Assembly: GCA_016699995.1 (NCBI GenBank)
Contig: CP064996.1
Location: 626,963 to 690,962 of the forward strand
Reading direction: 5' to 3'
Source: a bacterium
GTDB taxonomy: Bacteria; Patescibacteriota; Doudnabacteria; UBA920
DNA length: 64,000 bases
The translations under genes and the position numbers were made by a program. The number at the start of each line of letters is the position of its first letter. Position 1 is the stretch's first letter. The notes beneath the pieces were generated by a model that ran no database searches, was not told the DNA's origin, and saw only the letters and a program-made list of their open reading frames with translations. Shown here piece by piece: positions 14,321 to 61,116 of this stretch.

Positions 14321-14414
<94 letters not shown>

Positions 14415-20815: not shown

Positions 20816-20903
20816 GGAGAGGTCGCATAGTGGTTTAGTGCAACGGTCTTGAAAACCGTCAGGTCTCAAAGCCTCGAGGGTTCGAATCCCTCCCTCTCCG
20901 CCA
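20816..20903 (+). tRNA. tRNA-Ser (anticodon TGA), type II
   Basis: Acceptor GGAGAGG/CCTCTCC-G-CCA. Anticodon stem ACGGT/ACCGT with loop CTTGAAA. Long variable arm. T-arm GAGGG-TTCGAAT-CCCTC. The 5' 18 nt and 3' 28 nt are identical to tRNA-Ser(GCT) at 14321. Confidence 0.9.
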
Positions 20904-25365: not shown

Positions 25366-26499
25366 CTATCTCAAAAATAAGTAATACAGAGAGCCGTCTT
25401 GGTTATTGCGGAAGAACAATACATTGCCGTCAAAACTCAGGAACGGATCCTGCACATCTACGTTCGTTCCGGGAGCAAATTCGGTGCGGCTGCCAGACAT
25501 GTCGATCTTGTAAACCGTATCAGTGGTGATACCCTGATTAGCAGTGCCCGCTGTCGGTACACCAACAACAATTGCCGTGCTGTCTTTGGTCCACACAGCT
25601 TTGGTAGCAGAAGTCGTCACGCCCAAGCTACGGCTTTCGTTAGTGATAACGTCGAAGTAGTAAAGTTCGTAAGTAGAAGAAGAGGAGTTATACCTAGTGA
25701 ACAAAAACTTCTTGCTATCTGGCGACCAGACTACTTCCCGGTTATAACCATCGCGAATTAGAGACTTAAAAGTTTTACCGTCTGGAGTGACAGTGGTAAT
25801 GCCGTTACGGCTCATGTCCGAAGTTTGAGTCCTGTAAAAAGCAATGTGTTGACCATCCGGGGAAACACTGATGACATTGTCCGGTTCGTACAAGTCTGTG
25901 AGCAGCTGATAATTCTTTGTATCGGGATCGGAAACATTTAAAGTTGCTTTGCCGTCATTGCCAACCCATACAAAATAAATCCTGTCGCCATTAGTGTTCC
26001 AGTCTAAGCTGCGAACTTGCAGAGGCAAATCTATATAATTACCGCCATCTGGGCTATAGTAGCTCCACTTTCTGCTGGTGCCGCTTCCAGATTCTGCAAT
26101 ATAACTATTACCGACATTGGGCCACAGAATCTTGGCAATGTCGCCTTTCGCTGGAACGCTAATTTCTGTCTTATCGCTGAGCAATACAGAAGCAGTATCG
26201 ATATTCATGCTGGTGCGGAATAATTGCCCTTGTCGATTAAAATAAGCAATGCCATCGCCCTGGAAAAATAAAGCTGGACCGATTACGGATTCGTCAGTTA
26301 ATTTGGTGGCCTGCTTGTTTGTTGGCGTTTCCTCTATGGGATCTTCCTCAATTTCTGTCGGCTCCTCGACTATAACCGGAGTTTCCTCTACAACTTGTTC
26401 AGGTTCTTCTTTAGATGAACGCTGCCAAATGATAAAGCCCAGTGTTCCGACTATGAGGATAAATATCGCGCCTAAAATGGCAATTGCTCTTTTATTCAC
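25366..26499 (-). CDS. membrane-anchored TolB-like/PD40 beta-propeller protein
   Basis: N-terminal TM, acidic linker, then repeated PD40-type blades (YYSPDGGNYI, SVSPDGQHIAFY, VVWSPDSKKFLFT). Confidence 0.65.
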   Translation of the reverse strand: MNKRAIAILGAIFILIVGTLGFIIWQRSSKEEPEQVVEETPVIVEEPTEIEEDPIEETPTNKQATKLTDESVIGPALFFQGDGIAYFNRQGQLFRTSMNIDTASVLLSDKTEISVPAKGDIAKILWPNVGNSYIAESGSGTSRKWSYYSPDGGNYIDLPLQVRSLDWNTNGDRIYFVWVGNDGKATLNVSDPDTKNYQLLTDLYEPDNVISVSPDGQHIAFYRTQTSDMSRNGITTVTPDGKTFKSLIRDGYNREVVWSPDSKKFLFTRYNSSSSTYELYYFDVITNESRSLGVTTSATKAVWTKDSTAIVVGVPTAGTANQGITTDTVYKIDMSGSRTEFAPGTNVDVQDPFLSFDGNVLFFRNNQDGSLYYLFLR

Positions 26500-26611: not shown

Positions 26612-28561
26612 CTATTGAGTTAATCCAGTGCTGGGAATTGCGCTGCCCACATTCTTGCAAGCCTCGACAAAACTGCTACCCAAAGTATCACCACGAAACC
26701 AATCCACTGCCCACGTGATGGGACCACCAGCAATTGTGGCAATCCAGCCGCTGCCGTCTGCACCGCTTGCATGACAGGCGGCCACAAATAGCACAAAAGC
26801 TAGCACAAAAATCATCAGTACAATTACAACGATAATAATGTTAACAGTATGAACCAACCAGCGCTGCCACCAAACTAATTTCACTCTTAAAATGAAGGCC
26901 ACCAAGACGATTATTTCCATTAGGATAAAAGTAAGGCCGAAAGTTGGAACCAGTCCATCGAGGCAGGCCATATAGGCCTTATCCAGAATAGCGGCCAGAC
27001 CAGCCTTGGCCGCCTGCTTAGCAGCTCCTTTTTTATCTCCGCTCAGAGCTTTGCTTGCGATATCCTGTATCTCCTTTGGGTCTATTCCACCCTTAGCTCC
27101 TTTTGCTCCGCCCATCTTACCGCCCGCGCCTGCACCCATCTTACCGCCTGCACCTGCGCCAGCTCCCGCGCCGCCTGCCTTTGCGCCCATACCACCTGCG
27201 ACTCCGCCCATCTTACCGCCCGCGCCTGCACCTGCGCCAGCTCCCGCGCCGCCTCCAGGCGCACCTATGCCACCTTTAGGCATAGAATTACCCCTAGCTC
27301 CGCCCAACTGAGACATCTTAGAATTCATTGCATCCGGCCCCCCTGCCCCACCATAACCTTTCAGTTTTTTAGGATCCTTGCCTAACTTTTCGAAGGCTTT
27401 GCTCTTTTGAGCAGGATCTTTTAATTGATCGGGGTTATCATTTTTCTGAGCGGCGGAGCGCTCGTCCTGCTTTTGCTCCTTTTGCGGGTCTTTGGATTCA
27501 TTATCCTTCTGATCTTTTCGTTCATCATCTTGTCGGTCATCTTTCTTATTGTCTTGCTGCTGGTCTTGAGGTTCTGTATCTACTTCGGCATCATCAGCAG
27601 AATCTTCCTCACTTTGATCTTCTTCATCATCCACATCCTCCGACCCTGCAACAGTCTCCGCAGACTGCTCATTAAGCAGCGCTTGCTGCTGACGGCGCAG
27701 ATCTTCTTCGTACTTCTCATTTGCTTTGCGGCTCTCTGACTTAGCTTGAGTTTCATTTTCCTGGATCATCTGTTCCATCGTTTCATCGTCCACGTCTAAA
27801 ATCGGCTCCTGCTCCATGCGCTGCCGCTCTCTTTCTATTACATCGTCCGGCAAATACATTTCTGGCTTATCTTTACTAGCCTTAAACTGAGCCGGCGATT
27901 TTTGAATACCACCTTGTGGCGGCCAGTACTCTCCGCCTATTTTTTTATTCAGCTGTGCTTCGTCCCATGCCTCTTCTGCCAACTTTTTATGAATATCCTG
28001 ACCCTTGTGATGCAAACTGCCATCTTTGTTGTATACATCCTGCGCACTGTAACCAAAACTTTCGTGGAACCCGCCAGAAGTAGCCATGCCCTCATAATTT
28101 TGCATACCGCTCGGCAAATGAGCCACTGTGAGCTGCACTCTTCCACCTGCGCCTTTCTTTAAAGAATACTCAGCTGCTATTTGGTGCATTAGCTTCCCGA
28201 CGCCCTTATACTCATCGCCATAAGACTTCATTGACTCTACGTACACCTTAGGTTTATATTTTCCAGACGGATCCGAACCATAAGTGAGGCGCTCGTGATT
28301 TTGGTGGAATTTGCCAGTTGTTTGTAAATCCTGAAGCTCAGTCTGACTATAATATTTTAAGAGCTCTTTTCCCACCATTCGGTCTTTGGGATCAAAAACA
28401 CCAACCTCTAACATGTCCCCATACTTACCAGCTCTAACGGTTACGGGAACTTTGCGGTTGGTGCCTTTTTCTATGACAAAACCCTGACCCACTTTAGGGC
28501 CAAAGGAATGAGACTCTGTTAATGAATCCACTTTAGCTCGGTCTTTTGCATCCGACGCCAT
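26612..28561 (-). CDS. modular T4SS-associated protein: N-terminal globular domain, acidic linker, Gly/Ala-rich repeats, C-terminal 3-TM anchor
   Basis: 649 aa. Residues 1-230 are globular with unknown fold. 280-400 are D/E/Q/K-rich. 410-480 carry (GAGAGAGAGGKMGG)n repeats. The C-terminal hydrophobic helices are TFGLTFILMEIIVLVAFIL, NIIIVVIVLMIFVLAFVLFVAA. Confidence 0.65.
   Translation of the reverse strand: MASDAKDRAKVDSLTESHSFGPKVGQGFVIEKGTNRKVPVTVRAGKYGDMLEVGVFDPKDRMVGKELLKYYSQTELQDLQTTGKFHQNHERLTYGSDPSGKYKPKVYVESMKSYGDEYKGVGKLMHQIAAEYSLKKGAGGRVQLTVAHLPSGMQNYEGMATSGGFHESFGYSAQDVYNKDGSLHHKGQDIHKKLAEEAWDEAQLNKKIGGEYWPPQGGIQKSPAQFKASKDKPEMYLPDDVIERERQRMEQEPILDVDDETMEQMIQENETQAKSESRKANEKYEEDLRRQQQALLNEQSAETVAGSEDVDDEEDQSEEDSADDAEVDTEPQDQQQDNKKDDRQDDERKDQKDNESKDPQKEQKQDERSAAQKNDNPDQLKDPAQKSKAFEKLGKDPKKLKGYGGAGGPDAMNSKMSQLGGARGNSMPKGGIGAPGGGAGAGAGAGAGGKMGGVAGGMGAKAGGAGAGAGAGGKMGAGAGGKMGGAKGAKGGIDPKEIQDIASKALSGDKKGAAKQAAKAGLAAILDKAYMACLDGLVPTFGLTFILMEIIVLVAFILRVKLVWWQRWLVHTVNIIIVVIVLMIFVLAFVLFVAACHASGADGSGWIATIAGGPITWAVDWFRGDTLGSSFVEACKNVGSAIPSTGLTQ
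27100..27290. repeat. imperfect tandem DNA repeats (~96 bp unit) encoding Gly/Ala-rich repeats
   Basis: CCATCTTACCGCCCGCGCCTGCACC recurs at about 27112 and 27208. Encodes the GAGAGAGAGGKMGG units on the minus strand. Confidence 0.6.
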
Positions 28562-28565
28562 AGGA

Positions 28566-30407
28566 TTACCTCAAATCTTCTTTGCTTTGCTCTATCTCTA
28601 ACAGCTGCTTCGGATCGGTGGTGATAATCTGGTCTTCGACATAAGAAGCATAAACCTTGATGGCTGCATGCTTAAGACCGGCGAAGAAAATACCCTCGCC
28701 CACATCGCTTTCCAGTAATAAATACTTCTCACCCTCCGTGAGGAAAAATGTTTCAGTGACAATATCGATAGCAGCAGGACTTTGCTTAAGCAGCAACTGA
28801 ATAGATGAGTTCGTAACAATCGGCTTGCCGTAAGTACTGGCCATGAAATCGGCTACATCCTGAGTAATGGTGGTGAGTCCTAGATAATACTTACGGGCTC
28901 GCTTGGCAATACCGAATACGAACCGAGCGGAGTCTTCGTGCTGCATCAAGATCCAGGCTTCGTCCAACACCAAAATACGTTTCTTTAATTCGCTTCGCAC
29001 CACATTCCAAATGTGGCCAAGAATTATATACATAGCAATCGGGCGCAACTGCTCTTCTAGATCGCGGATAGAAAACACCAGCAGCTGATTCTGCAGCACT
29101 ACATTGGTTTGGTTATTTAATAATCCGGCAAAAGTACCTTCGGTGAACTTGCCCAAGCGAAGCGCCAAGCTTTCGCCGCCAACCATGCCTCCCAAAATTT
29201 CTATCAAATCGCTCATGACCGGCATTTCGGCGGTAGCGAAATCAGAATTCTCGGTAATATCTTTTTTAGCATAAGTCTGCCAAATCGCCTTATCCATAAT
29301 GGCTTCTTCGGTCGGATCCAGCTTGCCCAACACCAAGCCCATTAAGCCGATGAGGCTGATAACCGCGCTACGTAAAATATCTGCCTTGTCCTCGTCTTGC
29401 AAACCGATCGGCAAGTCAAATGGATTAATACGAAAATCGGAGTTAAGAGAAATGTTTAAGAAGGTTCCGCCTACAGCTTCGGCTAAATGCTGATACTCAT
29501 TTTCGGGATCGATAACAATAACTTCGATGCCGATCATCAGCGAACGCAAAATTTCTAATTTTACGGAATAAGACTTGCCAGCACCAGACTTAGCGAACAC
29601 AACGGAATTAGCATTTTCCATTGCAAAGCGGTCGAATAAAACCAAACTATTATTGTGGCGGTTAATTCCGTACAGAATACCGTCGTTGCCGGTAAGATCC
29701 GAAGATACAAACGGAAAAGTGCTAGAGAGCGGGCTGGTATTAAGGTTGCTGGTTACATCTAGATCATCCAAGCACAATGGCAAAGTAGAATTATACCCCG
29801 CCTCTACCGCGAGCATGGCGCGTTTGGTCACTACTAATTTCGCACCCAAAGCGCTTTCTAAAACCTTAGAATTCTTGTCTAGCTCTTCGAGTGAGTCGGA
29901 GTACAAAGTAAAGTAAAGGGCAAAGCGGAAGAAGTGTTCTACTCCCTGCTGCAGCTGATCGCGAAGCTCTTCTACGTCGTGGTAAGCGGTCTCCAGCAAT
30001 GGGTTGCGGGCCAAGCCTTTTTCCTGTTCGATCGTAATCTGGGAGCCGATTTCACCCACTTTGCTACGCAGTTTTTTAAGTACCATGCCGGAATCGATCG
30101 GGTAAATGAACATGGATACATCTAGAGCGCTCTCGGAGTTGATAATAAAAGATAGCCAGTTAGAAGACAAGAATCGCGGATATGCCAAAACGAAAAAGCT
30201 GCGCCCAAACTTGCCGTTAAGTTCGAACCAAGAGTTGGTAAACTTTAAGCTGCTGGGAGCTAGTAAATCTTTTAGGGTAGTGACGCCTTCCCGATACTCT
30301 TTCTCTACTTCGGCCAGTTTGCCCTCGGCCGAAATCTTACCTTTAAGGTGTTCGAGCTCTTCCTTCTTCTTTTCTAATTCGGTTTTGTTAAATGAAAATA
30401 AGCTCAT
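28566..30407 (-). CDS. virB4: VirB4/TraC/CagE-family conjugative ATPase, C-terminal ATPase portion
   Basis: Walker A FAKSGAGKS, Walker B ILVLDEAW. Gram-positive/CPR type. The start codon overlaps the upstream ORF's stop (TAATG). Confidence 0.85.
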   Translation of the reverse strand: MSLFSFNKTELEKKKEELEHLKGKISAEGKLAEVEKEYREGVTTLKDLLAPSSLKFTNSWFELNGKFGRSFFVLAYPRFLSSNWLSFIINSESALDVSMFIYPIDSGMVLKKLRSKVGEIGSQITIEQEKGLARNPLLETAYHDVEELRDQLQQGVEHFFRFALYFTLYSDSLEELDKNSKVLESALGAKLVVTKRAMLAVEAGYNSTLPLCLDDLDVTSNLNTSPLSSTFPFVSSDLTGNDGILYGINRHNNSLVLFDRFAMENANSVVFAKSGAGKSYSVKLEILRSLMIGIEVIVIDPENEYQHLAEAVGGTFLNISLNSDFRINPFDLPIGLQDEDKADILRSAVISLIGLMGLVLGKLDPTEEAIMDKAIWQTYAKKDITENSDFATAEMPVMSDLIEILGGMVGGESLALRLGKFTEGTFAGLLNNQTNVVLQNQLLVFSIRDLEEQLRPIAMYIILGHIWNVVRSELKKRILVLDEAWILMQHEDSARFVFGIAKRARKYYLGLTTITQDVADFMASTYGKPIVTNSSIQLLLKQSPAAIDIVTETFFLTEGEKYLLLESDVGEGIFFAGLKHAAIKVYASYVEDQIITTDPKQLLEIEQSKEDLR

Positions 30408-31093
30408 TATTTTTGAATGTTTTTAATATCGGCTTTGCCTAATTGACTGGCATCGATGCTCGGACCGGACGCAAAGTTATAAGAGTTGTACACCAGCTCT
30501 ATGAGCTGGTCGGTGGTGAGCTTTACCACGCGCAGCCCGCTGCTACCTAAAGCCGCCGCGACAGTATTGGTGCGTTCATCCAACTGTTTTTTGTAAGTCT
30601 TTAAGTTAGATTCCCTGTCCGTAATCGCTTTAGTTTTTCCTGTGCCGAAAATCTTGCTAAAAATGCTGATGTTAGTCGGATTAATGCTCGTATCGTAAGG
30701 CACGATGACGTAAAAGTTCTTGCTCATGACGTTGGCTGTTTCTACCAAGCGGTCGATAAACTCTATATATTCCTGAGTCTGCATGCGCAGCAACTCGTTG
30801 TTTTGCTTTTCCATCATCACGCGCAGCTTTTCTGTATATTCCGCGATATCCATTTTGCGGGATTGGATCAAAATCTGAACATGAAATTCTAAAGAGTTTA
30901 AAAATCTTTGATAGCTATAAATAAGCGCGTTCTGCTCTTCTTCACTTTTTAAATCGAAGTTGGTGCTAGACACCGCCAATACAGTACGCAATGTGCCGTT
31001 ATCCATCACGATTAAATCGTCACGGATTTCTGCGAGACGTAAAAATTGCTGTGTCGGATTGCCTATTTGTTGTTTTTGTTTGTTTAACGCCAT
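30407..31093 (-). CDS. VirB4 N-terminal domain-like protein (split VirB4, translationally coupled)
   Basis: 228 aa with LIVMDNGTLRTVLAVSSTNFDLKSEEEQNALIYSYQRFLNSLEFHVQILIQS pattern like the VirB4/CagE N-terminal domain. 228 + 613 aa is roughly full VirB4 length. Confidence 0.5.
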   Translation of the reverse strand: MALNKQKQQIGNPTQQFLRLAEIRDDLIVMDNGTLRTVLAVSSTNFDLKSEEEQNALIYSYQRFLNSLEFHVQILIQSRKMDIAEYTEKLRVMMEKQNNELLRMQTQEYIEFIDRLVETANVMSKNFYVIVPYDTSINPTNISIFSKIFGTGKTKAITDRESNLKTYKKQLDERTNTVAAALGSSGLRVVKLTTDQLIELVYNSYNFASGPSIDASQLGKADIKNIQK

Positions 31094-31551
31094 TATTTAG
31101 CCTGATTTTGTTTGTTTTGATTGATTCTTTCGATCAGTTTGGTTTCTTCGCTCTGCTCCTTATTAAGCAAATAGTTGAGCTCCTTAATCTTTAGAGCAGT
31201 TTCCTTTAGGTCCTTTGGAGCGACTTTTTCTTCTGTTGGGATCGGCAGTGTCTGTTCGGCTTCTTCGTGGCCTGTCTTGTGGTAAACATACTGCTTGGGC
31301 CCGAACAAGAATTTAATAAAATTACCGAAGCTAGCATAAAGCGGCCGGCCGTTTAATTTGCCAAAAGTTAACGCCAGAGCTGGAACGCCAGATCCGAGAC
31401 CCGCTACCACAGTAGCTGGAACATTTTTTGTGATAGTGAAGATAACAAAGGTGAATACGCCTGCGCCAAAAATGATCGCAAACTGCTTAAAAGTTAAGCC
31501 TGCGATAATCTTATCTTCTACATCGGTAAATTGTGGGACTGGGAATTGCAT
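31093..31551 (-). CDS. VirB3/PrgI/TcpE-like small membrane protein of Gram-positive-type T4SS
   Basis: 152 aa. N-terminal FTDVEDKIIAGLTFKQFAIIFGAG motif and 2 TM, as in PrgI/TcpE proteins found just upstream of VirB4. Stop overlaps the next start. Confidence 0.5.
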   Translation of the reverse strand: MQFPVPQFTDVEDKIIAGLTFKQFAIIFGAGVFTFVIFTITKNVPATVVAGLGSGVPALALTFGKLNGRPLYASFGNFIKFLFGPKQYVYHKTGHEEAEQTLPIPTEEKVAPKDLKETALKIKELNYLLNKEQSEETKLIERINQNKQNQAK

Positions 31552-31565
31552 GTTAATTATATCAC

Positions 31566-32609
31566 TTATACACGGTTGACCTTAAGCGAAAGCAGAATGT
31601 CGCTAACGAATTCAAATTCCTCTTGAGATAAAGCCAAATTTTGGGTACGACCAGAGAGCATGCTCTTACCGTAATTCAAATAGTCCTTATATAGAGGGCT
31701 GTTTTCGAAACTGGTGAGGACTTGGAAGTATCCCTGTGTGGAAGCAAGATTTGTAATGGCTTCATGAAAGGTTTTACGATTCTGAACATGCAAAACCGAG
31801 CTGGTTATAGCGGCGACGTCCTCTGGAGACTTTAATTCTATATTCTGCGTAGGAGTATAGTTGTAAGCAGCCTGGCTTACAGGTTGAGCTTGGGGAATTG
31901 GCTTTGGCTCTACAGGAGGCATAGGAACAGACTCTTTCGCAGGTGCGGGTCTTTGGGGCACAGAAGCAGGCTGAGGCCTTGGAGGAGGAGCTGTCTGCAC
32001 TGGCCGCGGCGCTGGCCGAGGCGCTAATTGTTGAGATGATGAGGCAGGCGAATATTGTGCGGGATTCGGTTCGGCTTGCACTTGATCCGGCCTCATTATC
32101 AAATGAGGGCGAGGATTAATTGGCGGCATAGCGGCGGTAGAACTCGGCCTTGGAGTCTGCGGCATCGATTGTGGCTGTTCCGAAATCGGGGTAGGTCTAG
32201 AAGCACCTGGCTTAGGAACATTGACTTTGCTCGGTAAATTGCTTATATGAGACAGGGAGGACGCATTGATATGAGGCAACGGCTTAGAAGGTTTTGGTAC
32301 AGGCTGAGGCGCAGGTTGTTGTCGTGCCGGTTGCGGTCTTGGAGGAGGAGCTGTCTGCACCGGTTGCGGCGCGGGAACAGGCTGTGGTCGCGGTGCCGGC
32401 CGTTGAAATACTGGAGCAGGCTGAGGTACAGGATTTGGAGCAGGCTTCGGTTCTGGCTTTGGTCCCATTAGAATTTCTTCCAATTCGGCTACCTGCTTAT
32501 CATTCATAAGCTCTATTAGCGCCATCCACTCTGTTTTTTCCTGGTCGGTTAAAACATTGGAGGTGCGTACCAGGTTATGTATTTGTTTTAATTTTTGATC
32601 GCTAAGCAT
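31566..32609 (-). CDS. proline-rich protein with internal duplicated PRPQP repeats
   Basis: 347 aa. N-terminal helical segment, then about 200 aa P/Q/A-rich with the duplicated block RPAPRP(Q/V)...QTAPPPRPQPA. Conserved C-terminal ~90 aa. Confidence 0.6.
   Translation of the reverse strand: MLSDQKLKQIHNLVRTSNVLTDQEKTEWMALIELMNDKQVAELEEILMGPKPEPKPAPNPVPQPAPVFQRPAPRPQPVPAPQPVQTAPPPRPQPARQQPAPQPVPKPSKPLPHINASSLSHISNLPSKVNVPKPGASRPTPISEQPQSMPQTPRPSSTAAMPPINPRPHLIMRPDQVQAEPNPAQYSPASSSQQLAPRPAPRPVQTAPPPRPQPASVPQRPAPAKESVPMPPVEPKPIPQAQPVSQAAYNYTPTQNIELKSPEDVAAITSSVLHVQNRKTFHEAITNLASTQGYFQVLTSFENSPLYKDYLNYGKSMLSGRTQNLALSQEEFEFVSDILLSLKVNRV
31976..32363. repeat. direct DNA repeat (~28 bp core GG(C/T)CTTGGAGGAGGAGCTGTCTGCAC) 360 bp apart
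   Basis: 31976-32003 and 32336-32363 are near-identical. They underlie the protein-level duplication in the Pro-rich ORF. Confidence 0.6.
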
Positions 32610-33583: not shown

Positions 33584-36500
33584 TTATACTAAGTCGGGAG
33601 GATTAAAATCCGGCGGTAAAGGGTTTGCGCCAGTAGTTGTATTGTTCGTTCCGGGGTTTGTTGTCCGACCACCTGTGCCGGTTCCACCACCAGGAGGTGT
33701 GCCAGGATTAGCCGGTGGCACATACGGTCTAGCCATCGTCGGACCGCCTCCTGCTATAGGCCCGCCTCCGCCTCCCGGTGCGCCAGGAGCGCCAGGGGCT
33801 CCGGGAGTTCCAGCTGGGCCAGCTGGGCCTGCTGGGCCAGCTCCGCCCGCTGGACCTGTTCCACCCCTGCCTCCACGTCCACCGGTTCCGCCAGTCGCAC
33901 CAGCTGCACCCGTGGCGCCTGTTGCGCCAGGGGCTCCAGCAGCGCCGCGTGGACCTGCTACAAATTTCCTGCCTGCGACATCCTCTAATGCGGCTCTAAT
34001 CTCCTTGCCCATATTTTTGCCCATTGCCTTAAAATCATCCTCAGTGATCACATCCAAAATCTGACCAGCTCTCTCCTTAGACATATCGCGTTTTACCTGT
34101 TTGGCCTTCTCTGTAGTATTCAATGCAGACAACCATTTAACCAACCCTGGGGTGGCTTCTTCTCTATTAGTTGTAGGATTGAAATGCTTAATATCGCCTT
34201 CTTTAACATCTTTGATTCCCAGCTTTGCAAACCGTTTTTCTACGTCCACCATTTGCGCCTGGTAAGACTTGATGATGCCGCCGCCACTAGGCATGTTCTT
34301 TACGGCATATCCCAAAGGAATAGCGCCGTTTTTAGCTGCGGTATTGGAAATCTCTCTAAATACGTTGGTCTGGTTGCGTTCGGAAGTCTTAAACTTATCT
34401 TTCACCATTTTCTCCAAGCCGACAATATTGTACTGGTAGGGATCCCCATTATCATCCTTCATGTTCTTCATAAGCTTGTCGGCCATTCCTGTTTCGGCAA
34501 TCTGCTTAACATATGCTCGCGCTTGTACAAAATTATTCTTCTTTAAAGCATCTAAGAAACCGGCTTCCAGCTGATCATAATCTAAATCCAAATCGGCAAT
34601 TTCCTTCTTTTGCTTCATAACCTCCATAGCTTCTTCCTTCTCCAAAGCCTTAGAATATGGGCGCTGGTATTTTTCTGCTTCTGTATTTAGTCGGGTAACT
34701 TCTTTTAGCAAAGCCTCCTTTACGCCATCGTTCATAGGGCCGTTGTAGCCCAGCTCTCGGCGCTTCGCTTGATCATTATCAATTACAGAAGTAGCATCGG
34801 CAATTTTCCTCTGCAGTTCATCCGTTATTTTTGTGGTGTCCACTACTGGTTCGATAGGATCACCTGGTGCCATTAATCCCTGCTGAACAAGCCCGCCTGG
34901 ATCGGTGACTATGCCGGTAGCCGGGTCTACGACTTCCGGATGATCAACCTTCATGTCCAAATTAACCTGCAAGTCTGCCAGGCTCACTTCGGTCGCTCCG
35001 GTAGCAACTGCATTGTTTACTGCATCTTCCAGAACATCGCGGCGAGCCTTAACTTGAGCTTCCTGATACTTAAGATCGCGGTTGCCAGGATCCTTCAAAA
35101 CAGCCTGTTCTGCCTTTTCGGAATCTTCATTCAATTTCGCAAGCTCGTCCTGAGCCTGAGCCAAAGTCAAACGGCCGGCTGATAGATCATTATATTTCTG
35201 CTGATCAGCGTCACGCTGGTCTGCTACGCCCCTAATTTCATCGTCATTCTTGATTTCCGTAGCAATGCGCTGATTGCGTTTTGCTTCTTCGAGCATAGGC
35301 GCACCAGGATCTTTTCCGCGCAGCTTGCGCCATGCCCACTGGGCACCCATGATTTTGTTTTCACCAAACGGCTGCAAGAAATTACTAACTTTCTTAAAGT
35401 CATCTGCAAACCGGCCGTTCATCTGTTCCTTTGGAATGTCGAAGTAACCTTTCTTAGCCGCCTTTAAGAACTCTTTCGGCCTTGCTACTGCGCGAATGGC
35501 TTTTTGCAAGCCAGGCTTCTTGTCTATGCCAAACAGCTTAGAGTTAGCCAAACTGTCTGCGCCGGTATCCTTAGCCCATTTGCCGCCCCAAACGGCTGCT
35601 TTGCCGGCGCCGCCGGCCACGGCCAATGGAGCGGTTTTGGTAACGAAGTCAAAGCCCTTCTTGGCAAACTTAACAATCTGCTGGGCCCCAACCGTACCGC
35701 TGCTTTGGGCAAACTTCATACCAAGGAACAGGAAAAACAGCACGACGAAATGCGAAATAACTGTAATTACATACTCAGCCAGCTCTCCGGAAATCCCTCC
35801 TAGCAAGAAGGTGCGATCGCGTCCCGCTACCACTGTATCGCCATTCTTGGAAGCAAAAGTTGTAGCCATTAGAGCGGCAATATTTAGGAAGAATGCCAAT
35901 ATGGGAACCGTAAAGGCATGCTTGATAAACATATCCCACCATTGATCCCAGTACTTTTTTGTATCCGGTAAAATTCTGGCAACGTAGGCTATTGGCGACA
36001 CCATATACAAAATCCACAGCACAACCAGCCTGATGATAATGAAGGCGATCAGTGCGACGAAGGCAAAAAATGCAGCTATTGCCAACACAAGTAGTATAAT
36101 AGGCTTGGTAAGATCACTAGCACTGGCATCAACCGAGAAGTTGCTGCTATCCGTAACTCCTGCACCGCTGCTTTGACCCCTAAAAAACTTGATAGGATCA
36201 ACCATCAATTTTTGACCGAGCGCTTCTATGACCTTGCTTTCTGCTGGCAGGAACTGAGCCTGCACAGTGTCGGCGATACCAACTACTCCTTGCGCAATGA
36301 CCAAGCTAAAATTGACCAGCAATGCCATCAGCACGAGCCACAAAATAAAGCCCCGGGTTTTGCCAGAATCATCGACTTGAAACAGAACACGCAGACCCAT
36401 CCATAACAACGCGACTATGAACCCGATGTTTGCTAGGTTGCGCATAATGACCCAGCCCGGGTAAATGAAGTTTACGAACTCATCTTTATGAGCGTAAATA

Positions 36501-38188
36501 TTTAGCAATGCGTTCAAGACCGGCACAAGAATGAACGCGAAGATCCAATAAATTACACCAGTAATTAACAGAACAATGTAAGAAATGACCCTGCGGATAA
36601 AGTTGAATAGATCGCTTCCGTTAGATTTTTCAGGATCTTCGTTGGAACTGGTGGTTTGGGTCACTGTGTCCGCAAAGCCAAATTTTGCATAATTGTCATC
36701 ATCGCATTTTGCTTTTTCTTCGTCAGTAGTTTTTTCCGCCTTACAAGCAGCCTTAATATCGTCTATTTTTTCGTAAACTTCTACAGTAAATTTTTCTAAT
36801 CCACCAGATCCAGCAATTAAAATAACACCATTGCTAACCAACAAGTTAAAAATCGAGATAGGGATACTGCCCTTTGTGCCGCCTATGGCAGGCAAAGCAA
36901 CGAATTCCGCAGAGCCATAAGGCTTACCAGCCTCGGGGGTTTTTGTTGTATCTACCTTGCTTAGCCATGCCTTAGATTTCAATAACGGGCTGTAATCGTA
37001 CCCTCCCGTCGGAGGGATGTACTCCGCCTGAGAAGGATCCCCCAAATCACCAGTGCTGTGCTTTGAGCTAAAAATTAATCCACTACAATCAGTACCAGTA
37101 AAAGTCGGTAGACAAGCGATCTTGCTCTTCCCCTTAACAGACGAAGCATACCCAAAATATATAACACTGCCGATGTACTTAGGAGTAAAATCTACCCCCG
37201 TCCAGCTATCGTCTTTTTGAGGCAGGGTAAAATACTGGAGTTTACCTAGCGGAGTACCACCCCATTCCACATGGACTTTATCCAGACCGCCAGTACCGGC
37301 AAATCTCATATCCCCGTCTGTTTTTAGAACGCGATATTTTTTTCTTAGGCCATACCCGTCTTTATTGGCCTTTATGGCAATAGATATCTTTTGATAATCA
37401 ACAGTTTGGGTATTATCGGTGTCACCATCCCCGCTGCCTTCCACATTTGGCAAGTCTCGAGCTGGGGGGCTATTATCCGTTTTATCCTTATTATGCTGAA
37501 TAGTCTGATTTGCCAACCAAGTTCCGGACCTGTTTGAACCGCCATACATATAAGCGTACAAGTAATATTCAGACCGGTACGACCCGCGTATGCTTCTAAC
37601 GCTCTGTTCCAATTTTTCGACAGTAACACCATTCTTGCGGCAATGAAACCCGTACGAATTATTCGCTTCGTCATAATACATCTTGGCCGTACAGAACAGT
37701 TCGTAATTTGTAGGGCGAACTGTGGGTATATAAGAAGTCAAACCTAACGCTGCAACATACGCATAAACCTCAAAAGTATAACTATTTTCCTTATTTTGCT
37801 CCTTACATTTATCTGCCAATTCCTTAGTAATCGGAACCTTCATATAAATATCGAATGGTTCCTTAGTACCTACAGTGTCTTTGCTCAGCAACATCTGGTA
37901 GCCGCTGCTGATGACGCCTGCTGTGTCAAAAATACGGCCAATAGAAACATTGGTACAGTCTACTGCCGCTTGAGCTTCCGGTATAGATGTTAGTGATTCA
38001 AAAACAGCTCTACCGTCTGAATTAGGTGAAATAAGACTGAGAAAAGGCAAAAACAAAGAAGCGATCAGAATCCCCAGGACAGTTTTCTGGAAGATTCCAA
38101 TGCCTCTTTTACTATTCCTGCTGCCGGCTTTATTCCGCAGTTTTTGAGTCAAAAATTGAATGAATTTTGGTATTGATTTCTGTATCAC
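33584..38188 (-). CDS. giant VirB6/TrbL-like polytopic membrane protein with large ectodomain and collagen-like Gly-X-Y C-terminal tail
   Basis: 1534 aa. N-terminal signal/TM. A ~520 aa extracellular region. A ~300 aa block of at least 6 TM helices (VirB6-like: LLITGVIYWIFAFILVPVL..., LVLMALLVNFSLVIAQGVVG...). A long coiled-coil cytoplasmic region. The C-terminal ~110 aa are GPRGAAGAPGATGATGAAGATGGTGGRGG...GTPGAPGAPGAPGGGG. Confidence 0.7.
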   Translation of the reverse strand: MIQKSIPKFIQFLTQKLRNKAGSRNSKRGIGIFQKTVLGILIASLFLPFLSLISPNSDGRAVFESLTSIPEAQAAVDCTNVSIGRIFDTAGVISSGYQMLLSKDTVGTKEPFDIYMKVPITKELADKCKEQNKENSYTFEVYAYVAALGLTSYIPTVRPTNYELFCTAKMYYDEANNSYGFHCRKNGVTVEKLEQSVRSIRGSYRSEYYLYAYMYGGSNRSGTWLANQTIQHNKDKTDNSPPARDLPNVEGSGDGDTDNTQTVDYQKISIAIKANKDGYGLRKKYRVLKTDGDMRFAGTGGLDKVHVEWGGTPLGKLQYFTLPQKDDSWTGVDFTPKYIGSVIYFGYASSVKGKSKIACLPTFTGTDCSGLIFSSKHSTGDLGDPSQAEYIPPTGGYDYSPLLKSKAWLSKVDTTKTPEAGKPYGSAEFVALPAIGGTKGSIPISIFNLLVSNGVILIAGSGGLEKFTVEVYEKIDDIKAACKAEKTTDEEKAKCDDDNYAKFGFADTVTQTTSSNEDPEKSNGSDLFNFIRRVISYIVLLITGVIYWIFAFILVPVLNALLNIYAHKDEFVNFIYPGWVIMRNLANIGFIVALLWMGLRVLFQVDDSGKTRGFILWLVLMALLVNFSLVIAQGVVGIADTVQAQFLPAESKVIEALGQKLMVDPIKFFRGQSSGAGVTDSSNFSVDASASDLTKPIILLVLAIAAFFAFVALIAFIIIRLVVLWILYMVSPIAYVARILPDTKKYWDQWWDMFIKHAFTVPILAFFLNIAALMATTFASKNGDTVVAGRDRTFLLGGISGELAEYVITVISHFVVLFFLFLGMKFAQSSGTVGAQQIVKFAKKGFDFVTKTAPLAVAGGAGKAAVWGGKWAKDTGADSLANSKLFGIDKKPGLQKAIRAVARPKEFLKAAKKGYFDIPKEQMNGRFADDFKKVSNFLQPFGENKIMGAQWAWRKLRGKDPGAPMLEEAKRNQRIATEIKNDDEIRGVADQRDADQQKYNDLSAGRLTLAQAQDELAKLNEDSEKAEQAVLKDPGNRDLKYQEAQVKARRDVLEDAVNNAVATGATEVSLADLQVNLDMKVDHPEVVDPATGIVTDPGGLVQQGLMAPGDPIEPVVDTTKITDELQRKIADATSVIDNDQAKRRELGYNGPMNDGVKEALLKEVTRLNTEAEKYQRPYSKALEKEEAMEVMKQKKEIADLDLDYDQLEAGFLDALKKNNFVQARAYVKQIAETGMADKLMKNMKDDNGDPYQYNIVGLEKMVKDKFKTSERNQTNVFREISNTAAKNGAIPLGYAVKNMPSGGGIIKSYQAQMVDVEKRFAKLGIKDVKEGDIKHFNPTTNREEATPGLVKWLSALNTTEKAKQVKRDMSKERAGQILDVITEDDFKAMGKNMGKEIRAALEDVAGRKFVAGPRGAAGAPGATGATGAAGATGGTGGRGGRGGTGPAGGAGPAGPAGPAGTPGAPGAPGAPGGGGGPIAGGGPTMARPYVPPANPGTPPGGGTGTGGRTTNPGTNNTTTGANPLPPDFNPPDLV

Positions 38189-45359: not shown

Positions 45360-46451
45360 ATGAACGGATGGGATTATTCCATCAACTTCTCCAGTGAAAT
45401 TCTAGTCGGAGCAGTTGTTTTTGTTGTAGCGATTATCAACCTAATCGTCTTCAATCCATTACAGTCTGAATATGATCACAATGACAACAGCTTATTAGCT
45501 CAGTTATTGCGCTACCATCCAAACCTCAACGAACAATTAGCCGACAAGCAAAATACTATCAGCACTAAAGTAGCCAGTGAAGGCGTATTCTCCCAAGCTA
45601 GCGCCAGCAACAACAGCCTGTTAGGTACGACCGAAGGCGCAGAAATTTTGGCCGAAGAATTTCAAATTGAAGATAGCGGCATTACCAAGCCAAACCCGGA
45701 CAGTATTAAAAGCTTAGCAGCGCGCCAGGTCCAAATTTATAAAACCAAGCCTTTTGATACAGTTTACACCGTTGCTGCTCAATTCGGCCTAACGCCTAAG
45801 ACTATCCGCGAAACCAACAGCTTGCCTAGCAATGCTTTGCTGGCCGATTGGGACTTAATCATCCCTCCTGTAGACGGTGTTGTGATTCAAGTTACCAACC
45901 CAAATCTTACCCTATCTGACGCAGCCCACTACTATTCTGCCGATATTAAGCAGATCGTTGCGCGAAACGGCTTGGAAGACGATGAAGACATGGTGGAACT
46001 AGGCGGCTATTTGGTTATCCCTGGCGGCAGCCTGCCAAAGCCAAAGGTAGCTACTCCGGCTCCGTCTACTACTAATAACAAAAAGTTTACCCCTTCTGTA
46101 CCTCGCTCTGTAACTATAAAAGGTAATCACCGCTTTGCACCAGGATACTGCACAGACTACGTAGCCCGCAATGTGGCCGGCATTACCTGGGGCGGCAACG
46201 CCAACCAATGGATCACCAACGCTAAGGCTCAAGGCGTTAAGGTTGACCGCAATCCGGTAGCAGGCGCAGTACTGGTTACCAGCGAAAACCGACGCTATGG
46301 CCACGTAGCCAAAATTGATAGCGTAAGCGGCGACAAGGTTACCATCTCTGAGTGGAACTATGCCGGCTTGTACAAAAAGACTGTTCGCACTTTGGACATT
46401 AGTGACCCGATCATCAAAGGCGTCATCCATCCAAATCAGAAGTCTAATTAA
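45360..46451 (+). CDS. membrane-anchored peptidoglycan hydrolase: LysM-like repeats + C-terminal CHAP domain
   Basis: N-terminal TM. Two LysM-like modules (YKTKPFDTVYTVAAQFGLTPKTIRETNSL; SDAAHYYSADIKQIVARNGL). CHAP domain with Cys (GYCTDYVARN) and His (YGHVAKIDSV). Confidence 0.75.
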   Translation: MNGWDYSINFSSEILVGAVVFVVAIINLIVFNPLQSEYDHNDNSLLAQLLRYHPNLNEQLADKQNTISTKVASEGVFSQASASNNSLLGTTEGAEILAEEFQIEDSGITKPNPDSIKSLAARQVQIYKTKPFDTVYTVAAQFGLTPKTIRETNSLPSNALLADWDLIIPPVDGVVIQVTNPNLTLSDAAHYYSADIKQIVARNGLEDDEDMVELGGYLVIPGGSLPKPKVATPAPSTTNNKKFTPSVPRSVTIKGNHRFAPGYCTDYVARNVAGITWGGNANQWITNAKAQGVKVDRNPVAGAVLVTSENRRYGHVAKIDSVSGDKVTISEWNYAGLYKKTVRTLDISDPIIKGVIHPNQKSN

Positions 46452-60728: not shown

Positions 60729-61116
60729 GGGGATGCCGGATTTCGACAGGACTTCGACATCGCTCTATATGCAAGACGAGCCAGCTTGCAAGCTCGTAAA
60801 TCTTACAAGCAACCATAAGTGTAAACTCATGGAACAAGGTCGTTACCGCATTTAAAAATGCGCAACTTGCACCTGCGTTCGCTTAACATTTAGGCAAACG
60901 CCTGGTCCTCTGCCCCGCTCTGGGCAGAGATCCGCCAGATTATTTTGAGCTATAGTGTTGTTGTCCGATATATGCAATAACACCGAAATTTTATATATCG
61001 ACCATTAGCTTAGTTGTTCGTTGTAAGGCTAGTGGTAACTTAAACGAACTAATCTTGTGAACAATGGAACGGTGAAAAAGACTTGGACGCGGGTTTAACT
61101 CCCGCCATCTCCACCA
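60729..61116 (+). ncRNA. ssrA: transfer-messenger RNA (tmRNA, ssrA)
   Basis: 5' GGGGATGCCGGATTTCGACAGG (E. coli has GGGGCUGAUUCUGGAUUCGACGGG). 3' GGACGCGGGTTTAACTCCCGCCATCTCCACCA (E. coli has GGACGCGGGUUCAACUCCCGCCAGCUCCACCA). Acceptor stem has the G3:U wobble. smpB lies 4 kb upstream. Candidate tag ORF GCA TTT AAA AAT GCG CAA CTT GCA CCT GCG TTC GCT TAA (AFKNAQLAPAFA*) at 60848-60896. Confidence 0.85.

Follow-up and report, generated by a model that had tools for sequence, protein, structure and literature searches.

The window examined in this work is a 64,000-nucleotide (nt) stretch of a Patescibacteria genome (assembly GCA_016699995.1, contig CP064996.1, positions 626,963 to 690,962 of the forward strand), and it contains on its minus strand (26612..28561) a gene for a protein of 649 amino acids (aa), referred to below as the target protein, which lies directly after the gene for a VirB4-like ATPase in a type IV secretion system (T4SS) block. 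Our results provide good support for the view that the target protein is a chimera, in which an N-terminal head with a GCN5-related N-acetyltransferase (GNAT) fold and a 50-residue helix are joined, through a non-conserved disordered linker of about 180 residues, to a membrane module that is found in the post-VirB4 proteins of this clade. The open reading frame (ORF) is complete and shows no interruption over 1.95 kb. Its product is annotated by NCBI as 'hypothetical protein IPM19_03505 [bacterium]' (QQS22671.1), the exact protein being present on one contig (of 943 kb) only, and it is identical to the protein designated P0002 in our exhaustive HMMER search. Searches with the whole protein against Pfam, NCBIfam and the sequences in the PDB gave nothing or low-complexity noise, and in agreement with a preliminary description made from the DNA sequence alone, the Pfam and NCBIfam scans matched the whole protein to no textbook VirB component. 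No paralogue of its head or tail is present elsewhere in the window.

The anatomy of the target protein is secure. In a composition scan, residues 1-255 are of mixed composition, residues 256-400 contain 33% Asp plus Glu (48 Asp/Glu versus 24 Lys/Arg, for a net charge of -24), residues 400-500 consist of 41% Gly and 20% Ala together with Lys and Met, with the motif GGKMG occurring three times, and the C-terminus is hydrophobic. The full-length AlphaFold 2 (AF2) model, in which residues 4-255 and a helix at residues 259-309 are confidently predicted and the per-residue confidence (pLDDT) is 30-50 at residues 314-375 and 395-492, agrees with this modular composition, and the proposal that this is a mosaic protein with four compositional modules is upheld by both lines of evidence. 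The head (residues 1-255; 27797..28561, minus strand, as are all parts of this gene) is assigned to a divergent GNAT-fold domain by AF2, Foldseek and the Pfam hits of its homologues, and a long alpha-helix with a pLDDT of about 97 extends from it (residues 259-309; 27635..27787). An equivalent helix-forming stretch is present after the PILL motif in the homologues. The helix is followed by an acidic, Gln/Lys-rich spacer (residues 310-400; 27362..27634), whose disorder is indicated by its composition and a pLDDT below 50 over residues 314-375, and then by a disordered linker rich in Gly, Ala and Lys, which contains the three GGKMG motifs (residues 401-493; 27083..27361) and is likewise recognized by composition and AF2. 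The acidic nature of the spacer is not conserved, as the linker of the homologue P0003 is basic and rich in Lys and Ser; similar Gly/Ala/Lys-rich linkers are found ahead of the anchor in the loci L005 and L020. The remainder of the protein (residues 496-649; 26615..27076) is made up of the conserved post-VirB4 membrane module, which was delineated by a hidden Markov model (HMM) and an alignment (A6).

The relationships of the membrane module were studied by comparison of 80 related loci, whose VirB4 proteins are 58-93% identical and which come from metagenome-assembled genomes (MAGs) titled Doudnabacteria, Saccharibacteria or Patescibacteria. These titles are unreliable as labels, since MAGs with near-identical VirB4 (86-93%) bear names as different as 'Candidatus Saccharibacteria', 'Candidatus Doudnabacteria' and 'Patescibacteria group'. 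VirB4 is succeeded in most of the loci examined by a gene whose product has transmembrane (TM) segments, and an iterative HMM seeded from the target tail detected a module of about 150 residues in 55 of 76 post-VirB4 genes examined and also in the proteins P0003, P0004 and P0026. With an HMM from which the target and the proteins sharing its head had been left out, the target reached 56.8 bits (E 1e-16), as compared with 9.9 bits for the highest-scoring of 1000 shuffled sequences. The module of the target consists, in order, of juxtamembrane helices, a hydrophobic block (block 1, residues 541-560), a basic Trp-rich loop (RVKLVWWQRWLVH), a second TM segment (residues 572-596) and a tail extending from C596 to beyond C635. 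In the relatives, a hydrophobic block is similarly followed by a basic W-Q-K/R loop, a TM segment of 25-30 residues ending in Cys and a second Cys 9-41 residues further on, and in some lineages an additional TM turns the block into a complete hairpin of two TM segments. Both cysteines are present in all 47 module sequences that were scored, and C596 and C635 of the target align with this invariant pair (alignment A6). Only two segments of the target, at about residues 541-560 and 572-596, pass the Kyte-Doolittle threshold, and the tail with three TM segments of the preliminary description has to be revised: the third candidate helix, at residues 604-622, was rejected because it is too weakly hydrophobic, has low AF2 confidence and is not consistently hydrophobic in the homologues.

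Lysozyme-like domains of the SLT or SLT_3 type come after the module in loci that are more distant (VirB4 with about 74-80% identity). In the loci L026 and L028 (e.g., L028:11837-13093), which carry the two-TM module closest to that of the target, the module is succeeded by a LAS-type DD-peptidase/hedgehog-like domain with an HxH motif, which was detected through PDB 1lbu (E 2e-3) and gave no Pfam report at E<=0.05. As the hydrolase domains in the relatives are always located C-terminal to the module, the module, which in this clade usually bears such an enzyme, represents the membrane anchor of the clade's analogue of the VirB1 hydrolase, and these sequence comparisons support well the view that the hydrolase part is absent from the target. 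The target protein ends 14 residues past the second conserved Cys, and the Pfam and NCBIfam scans revealed no SLT, CHAP, M23 or LAS domain in it.

Structure prediction and a Foldseek search for the head, both of which had been suggested in the preliminary description, yielded with a 75-sequence alignment a confident AF2 model (pLDDT 91.1; predicted TM-score (pTM) 0.88), whose top 30 matches in the PDB were all GNAT or GNAT-like proteins (E values down to 1.6e-4, probability 0.87-1.0). The leading match was the acetyl-CoA-binding regulatory domain of Mycobacterium tuberculosis ICL2, and it was followed by nourseothricin acetyltransferase, NatD, NAT10 and RimI. The Pfam models for GNATs (Acetyltransf_1, Acetyltransf_10 and Acetyltransf_7) match 22 of the 88 members of the head family, with a best E value of 1.4e-7; the target head itself passes no Pfam or NCBIfam GNAT model. 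A profile of the head family also aligns to an N-acetyltransferase (PDB 3fb3) across motifs A and B with an E value of 1.9e-4. The segment E117-Y-K-G-V-G122 of the target, in which the first position is occupied by Gln in P0001 and P0003, fits the Q/R-x-x-G-x-G/A pyrophosphate loop (motif A) located between beta4 and alpha3, and the presence of this motif, together with the AF2, Foldseek and Pfam results, overturns the earlier statement that the head is devoid of any recognizable motif. Residues G122, E131 and G140 are invariants of the head family, with G122 invariant in 30 aligned members (alignment A5), and the features conserved across the family are the x-x-G-x-G loop, E131, G140-R141, F165, G170 and the C-terminal MYLP strand (residues 235-238). 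The predicted structure thus shows a GNAT fold of divergent type, and we infer that it may bind CoA and possibly act as a catalyst.

The family to which the head belongs is real but rare. The exhaustive HMMER search, which covered 1.84 billion representatives, identified 88 head-family proteins (counted as clusters at 50% identity), 12 of them at E<=1e-30. It was this search that revealed the family, the word-indexed searches being nearly blind: the search with the head, of 5.8 billion proteins, returned one match, that with the head profile (A5) four and that with the target tail none. With a narrower alignment of the head (A7), only 3 metagenome loci were found, and NCBIfam provided nothing useful for either the post-VirB4 proteins of the relatives or the head homologues. 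The architectures observed in the family include stand-alone forms with a Zn-ribbon, forms with C-terminal TPRs and the head-linker-TM fusion, and the members of a distant branch either are short or carry hydrophobic hairpins at the N-terminus. In P0017, P0019 and P0024 the GNAT-like domain comes after N-terminal paired hydrophobic segments, with P0017 and P0019 also having the motif GKGLISPIT...MF in common, and the domain is present as a tandem pair in P0018 and P0040. A fusion of the head to the anchor without a hydrolase was seen in three protein clusters only, viz. the target, P0003 and P0004.

The homologues containing Zn-ribbons or TPRs are soluble proteins without TM segments, and those from Patescibacteria are found in ordinary chromosomal contexts. 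One of them, P0005 (L087:5386-9377), which consists of the head and TPRs, is encoded directly after an 842-aa VirD4/TraG-like coupling ATPase (DUF8128) and beside a SecY/ribosomal operon. Another free homologue, of 391 aa (L098/L099:7881-10075), shares 1 nt with the beginning of a FemAB-family gene, after which comes a Mur ligase gene, and this arrangement hints that the head family may be tied to peptidoglycan-precursor chemistry. In one genome, a head homologue and a head-less tail gene are present separately on one contig, about 10 kb apart. The free-standing homologues have no small neighbouring gene in common, and no immunity-like neighbour specific for the head was found, the PD40 gene that lies beyond the post-VirB4 gene being retained with and without the head. 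The refutation proposed in the preliminary description is borne out by half: the fold of the head is a common one and its free-standing homologues occur away from VirB4, but for the fused head-anchor form no location other than directly after VirB4 has been encountered to date (in the target and P0003; the context of P0004 was not looked up), and the linkage of the fusion to the T4SS that was envisaged at the outset is in this respect retained.

With regard to the topology of the target protein, both the wall hydrolases of the relatives and the Cys pair are C-terminal, which argues for an extracytoplasmic location of the C-terminus. On average, 2.4 Lys plus Arg are present in the stretch of 15 residues that precedes the last TM segment, versus 1.1 after it (47 sequences), and this places the loop preceding it in the cytoplasm. 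No signal peptide is present, as the N-terminus (MASDAKDRAKVD...) is hydrophilic and no hydrophobic segment is found before residue 533. Block 1 has Lys/Arg-rich flanks on both of its sides, and in several SLT-bearing relatives block 1 is weak, with only the last TM segment being strongly hydrophobic. Taken together, the lack of a signal peptide, the CoA-dependent fold, the soluble paralogues, the basic flanks and the weakness of block 1 favour a predicted topology in which the N-terminus is inside, the C-terminus is outside and only the last TM segment spans the membrane.

Our preferred interpretation, which is put forward tentatively and to which we assign slightly less than an even chance, is that the target may be a cytoplasm-facing, membrane-tethered, acyl-CoA-dependent transferase or sensor that is docked at the T4SS. 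According to this proposal, the last TM segment (residues 572-596) would pass from inside to outside, and the disulfide-bracketed C596...C635 tail would be located outside, as are the hydrolases of the relatives, with block 1 being embedded in the membrane or re-entrant. The head and the linker would remain in the cytoplasm, where acyl-CoA is present, the anchor would dock the protein at the VirB4/PrgI/VirB6 complex, and the disordered linker would serve only as a flexible tether. The tethered head would bind acyl-CoA and then acylate a local target, which could be a T4SS component, a cargo protein or a wall precursor. Alternatively, the head could constitute an acyl-CoA-sensing regulatory module similar to the M. 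tuberculosis ICL2 domain, which is reportedly a non-catalytic acetyl-CoA sensor. The gene itself would have been born by module shuffling at a hypervariable slot.

A number of observations weigh against this proposal. The TM-scores of the head to solved GNATs are low (0.25-0.44), and it must therefore be regarded as a divergent GNAT. Canonical GNATs often have a Tyr as general acid at the site in question, and although the distant group of the head family contains Tyr there (in the sequence FHY), the Patescibacteria subgroup that includes the target has Glu (FHE). The extreme variability of the gene beside a VirB4 that is 93% identical, which is described below, is what would be anticipated for host-exposed proteins and speaks for the alternative readings. 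Further, AF2 draws residues 541-598 as one continuous helix, with an alignment that is only about 4 sequences deep in the tail, and if the two hydrophobic segments instead formed a two-TM hairpin with the C-terminus outside, then the N-terminal part of 530 residues would also be outside.

An even number of TM segments combined with an outside C-terminus predicts exactly such an outside N-terminus, and the target could then be a surface-displayed stalk or adhesin, an adhesin having been one of the possibilities named in the preliminary description. In such a protein, the Gly/Ala/Lys-rich linker would span the wall, the acidic spacer would form a stalk, the GNAT-like fold would be a non-catalytic binding domain and the TM hairpin would fix the protein next to the T4SS. 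The order of head, stalk, wall-spanning segment and anchor resembles that in Gram-positive surface proteins. The hypervariability of the gene and the long Ser/Gly/Gln-rich N-terminal regions of the relatives of about 1000 aa are likewise in line with this arrangement. However, a protein that has no signal peptide would have to export some 530 N-terminal residues, a folded domain among them, no acyl-CoA is available for GNAT chemistry outside the cell, and the Zn-ribbon and TPR paralogues are of cytoplasmic type. Considering also the Lys/Arg-rich flanks on both sides of block 1 and the absence from the target of an LPXTG or other wall-sorting motif, we regard a surface-exposed head as distinctly improbable.

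The slot that follows VirB4 is highly variable even among close relatives. In the closest locus, L005, the VirB4, TrsD-like, PrgI and PD40 proteins are 93%, 86%, 72% and 67% identical, respectively, to those of the window, and the similarity to the target protein is 28% over 24% of its length, which makes the target the least conserved gene of the block. In a tblastn search, loci with a VirB4 as similar as 93% identity yielded no counterpart of the head or linker, and a head is missing altogether from the closest relatives (VirB4 86-93% identical). P0003 represents an orthologue in syntenic position, which occupies the same place in the operon and whose VirB4 is 85% identical. The head of P0003 and that of P0004 each show 58% identity to the target head and retain all invariants of the family, whereas the tail of P0003 shows 27% identity over 77 aa to the target tail versus 61% to the tail of the head-less L016 protein. 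The combination of heads that are 58% identical with tails that barely align points to the independent recombination of the modules. An assembly chimera is ruled out as the source of this architecture, since P0003, which derives from an independent assembly, has the same head-linker-TM architecture and operon position, and P0004 has the same architecture. In the protein P0026 (L020:9501-11279), only residues 3-78 of the head are left (41% identity), and they are accompanied by a Gly-rich linker with GGSKMGG, TM segments and a C-terminal SLT domain. In the locus L024 (12004-13185), the post-VirB4 gene has no membrane module and encodes a PT-TG (pre-toxin TG) domain (E 1.2e-9), which is characteristic of polymorphic toxins. 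As judged from these sequences, heads, linkers, anchors and hydrolase domains have been recombined, lost or have decayed independently of each other at this slot.

The slot could also be a polymorphic cargo locus, in which a common membrane module would bring enzymatic heads of various kinds (a lysozyme, a LAS peptidase, a GNAT or a PT-TG toxin) to the T4SS, and the target could be a tethered or released T4SS effector, as was likewise considered in the preliminary description, whose GNAT head would act in the cytoplasm of the host bacterium, at the expense of host acetyl-CoA. The long linker would allow such a head to be threaded or cleaved, and it is consistent with this possibility that the gene is the most variable one in a conserved operon, that its modules are shuffled between lineages, that a PT-TG protein takes this slot in L024, and that P0005 directly follows a VirD4-like coupling ATPase. 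The N-terminal hydrophobic hairpins of the distant family members recall, in our reading, membrane-inserted effectors, and the T4SSs of Patescibacteria, which are without relaxases, are thought to have been repurposed for host interaction (PMC12102498). However, no immunity-like neighbour is specific for the head, the PD40 gene being present in either case, the free homologues have housekeeping surroundings and no partner genes, translocated substrates do not usually possess a membrane anchor at the C-terminus, and no known T4SS signal was identified in the target. We consider it unlikely on balance that the target is an effector of this kind. The more specific form of this idea, in which the GNAT head would be released on a tether of about 230 residues through the T4SS and would acylate a host target, is a little less probable again; if true, it would provide the first candidate effector family for an epibiont T4SS.

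Some of the same observations also bear upon the possibility that the target is a structural remnant, in which only the membrane module, acting as an assembly factor, still matters, the hydrolase having been lost and maybe replaced by a LysM-CHAP enzyme, and the head being a drifting passenger or pseudo-enzyme. The partial head of P0026 in L020 indicates that a head has decayed in a sister lineage, the closest relatives do without one, neither the sequence nor the charge of the linker is conserved, and the target's subgroup has FHE instead of FHY. Against this, the 58% identity of the P0003 and P0004 heads, with all invariants kept, and the very confident fold argue for purifying selection, and the ORF remains intact over its entire length. 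In view of these facts, a decaying head appears improbable, and a membrane-tethered, cytoplasm-facing transferase or sensor is retained as our working interpretation.

The DNA encoding the Gly/Ala-rich linker contains imperfect direct repeats (27085..27275), which were identified by Tandem Repeats Finder (TRF) and a direct-repeat search. TRF reported a period of 24 with 5.1 copies and 66% matches, and the longest copies, of 52-53 nt with 83-85% identity, are located within 27085-27275 at offsets of 72, 78 and 96 nt. The earlier report of tandem repeats of about 96 bp is thus correct insofar as direct repeats code for the Gly/Ala units, but due to their imperfect nature there is no clean 96-bp tandem that would slip readily. 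Recent, slippage-prone perfect repeats were rejected, as the copies are just 66-85% identical.

The genes surrounding the target establish that it is part of a T4SS operon, as was originally proposed. The target ORF starts 4 nt after the stop codon of VirB4, and a GAGG Shine-Dalgarno sequence (28569..28572, minus strand) is located 7 nt 5' of its ATG, within the last codons of VirB4; this arrangement suggests that VirB4 and the target are co-transcribed and are probably coupled in translation. The VirB4-like ATPase of 613 aa (28566..30407, minus) was identified by NCBIfam conju_CD1110 (E 5e-103) and the Pfam models P-loop_TraG and AAA_10. The gene before it (30407..31093, minus) codes for a TrsD/TraC-like protein of 228 aa, which represents a separate VirB4 N-terminal domain (NCBIfam; an orthologue in L084 matches PF26593, TraC-like). 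VirB4 is thus effectively split, as the N-terminal region of VirB4 models is matched by the 228-aa protein, whose gene overlaps that of the 613-aa ATPase by one base. Next to it is a PrgI/VirB3-like protein (31093..31551, minus; Pfam PrgI, E 5e-10), upstream of which are genes for two unassigned proteins, one of them proline-rich, then a TrbL/VirB6-like gene and then other secreted proteins. The proline-rich protein of 347 aa (31566..32609, minus) contains APRPAPRPVQTAPPPRPQPA-like segments in duplicate and matches no family, and it diverges fast, showing 45% identity in the closest relative. The TrbL/VirB6-like polytopic protein (33584..38188, minus; Pfam and NCBIfam), which is 1534 aa long, has a weak Pfam TrbL match (E 4e-4, residues 596-785) and a collagen-like Gly-X-Y C-terminal tail (NCBIfam Scl1/SclA-like, E 2.7e-6). 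A VirB6/TrbL identity for the target was rejected, as it has two hydrophobic segments rather than at least five and no TrbL match, and this TrbL-like gene is separate from it.

Downstream of the target by 113 nt, on the same strand, is the gene for a PD40 beta-propeller protein of 377 aa with an N-terminal TM segment (25366..26499, minus; Pfam). Since this gene is syntenic in L084, L096 and most of the loci tabulated, the target is, contrary to the preliminary description, not strictly the last gene of the block. Housekeeping genes (RadA and a UvrD-like helicase) flank the T4SS block, and the presence in the window of a tmRNA gene and two tRNA genes (60729..61116, 14321..14411 and 20816..20900, all on the plus strand) is consistent with an ordinary chromosomal region. 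A cell-wall hydrolase with LysM and CHAP domains (45360..46451, plus strand) is encoded about 4 kb past the far end of the block and 17 kb from the target, and this enzyme may take the place of the hydrolase domain that the target lacks. Chromosomal, relaxase-less, MPF-FATA-like T4SSs (MPF, mating-pair formation) have been described in Patescibacteria, where they are essential for epibiotic growth and where, in Saccharibacteria, essential lysozyme and peptidase genes are located directly after virB4 (PMC12102498). The hydrolase domains that come after the module in the relatives agree with the latter arrangement. The block in the window, from a Doudnabacteria-like MAG, is a T4SS of this type.

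As both this type of T4SS and the rule that a hydrolase follows virB4 are already known, the head-anchor fusion represents an uncommon version of a slot described before rather than a system of a new kind. Neither the anchor module and its Cys pair nor the family of GNAT-like heads was described in the literature that was searched or in the domain libraries that were scanned, and these two families, which current libraries miss, have now been defined. The slot after virB4 emerges from this work as the most plastic part of the operon, built around a conserved and previously undescribed module with an invariant Cys pair, which in a few lineages is combined, in place of a wall hydrolase, with a GNAT-like family that is rare and lacks annotation. 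The slot provides a testable handle on the regulation of, or delivery by, the T4SS in Patescibacteria.

Of the known systems with which the target can be compared, the GNAT superfamily (Acetyltransf_1, _7 and _10, and the ICL2 domain in PDB 6ee1/6edz) shares with the head its fold and the motif A loop between beta4 and alpha3, and the GRVxL strand (beta5), the F-H-x-x-x-G-F/Y segment (alpha4) and the MYLP strand, which is placed like GNAT beta7, also have their equivalents in this superfamily. However, the target domain has four N-terminal strands without the usual alpha1-alpha2, extends over about 255 residues plus the 50-residue helix and belongs to a rare family. The polymorphic toxins and T4SS killing systems (Xanthomonas X-Tfe; PT-TG architectures) similarly combine a constant docking module with variable enzymatic modules that undergo recombination, and a PT-TG protein occupies the slot in L024; in contrast to these systems, no gene for immunity was detected, the constant module has variable domains on either side, and delivery is in the present case only predicted.

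The extended membrane components of other T4SSs, such as the Rickettsiales VirB6 paralogues and TraG of the F plasmid, are alike in concept, as in these a membrane subunit carries large, fast-evolving and partly disordered domains. They differ in having at least five hydrophobic segments, where the target has two, and the operon of the target contains a separate TrbL/VirB6-like gene. This concept of T4SS membrane subunits with appended domains is presented in one published account (PMC7648143).

The VirB1-type peptidoglycan hydrolases of monoderm (MPF-FATA) T4SSs from Gram-positive bacteria, e.g. PrgK of pCF10, TraG of pIP501 and CwlT of ICEBs1, have a single N-terminal TM segment, unlike the C-terminal module of the target. 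With these enzymes and with the corresponding Saccharibacteria genes (PMC12102498), the target shares the slot directly after virB4, the coupling to it and the anchoring in the membrane, and its anchor is homologous to the module to which, at the related loci of Patescibacteria, domains of the SLT, SLT_3 or LAS-peptidase type are attached; it differs from all of them in that an N-terminal GNAT-like domain is present instead of the hydrolase domain.

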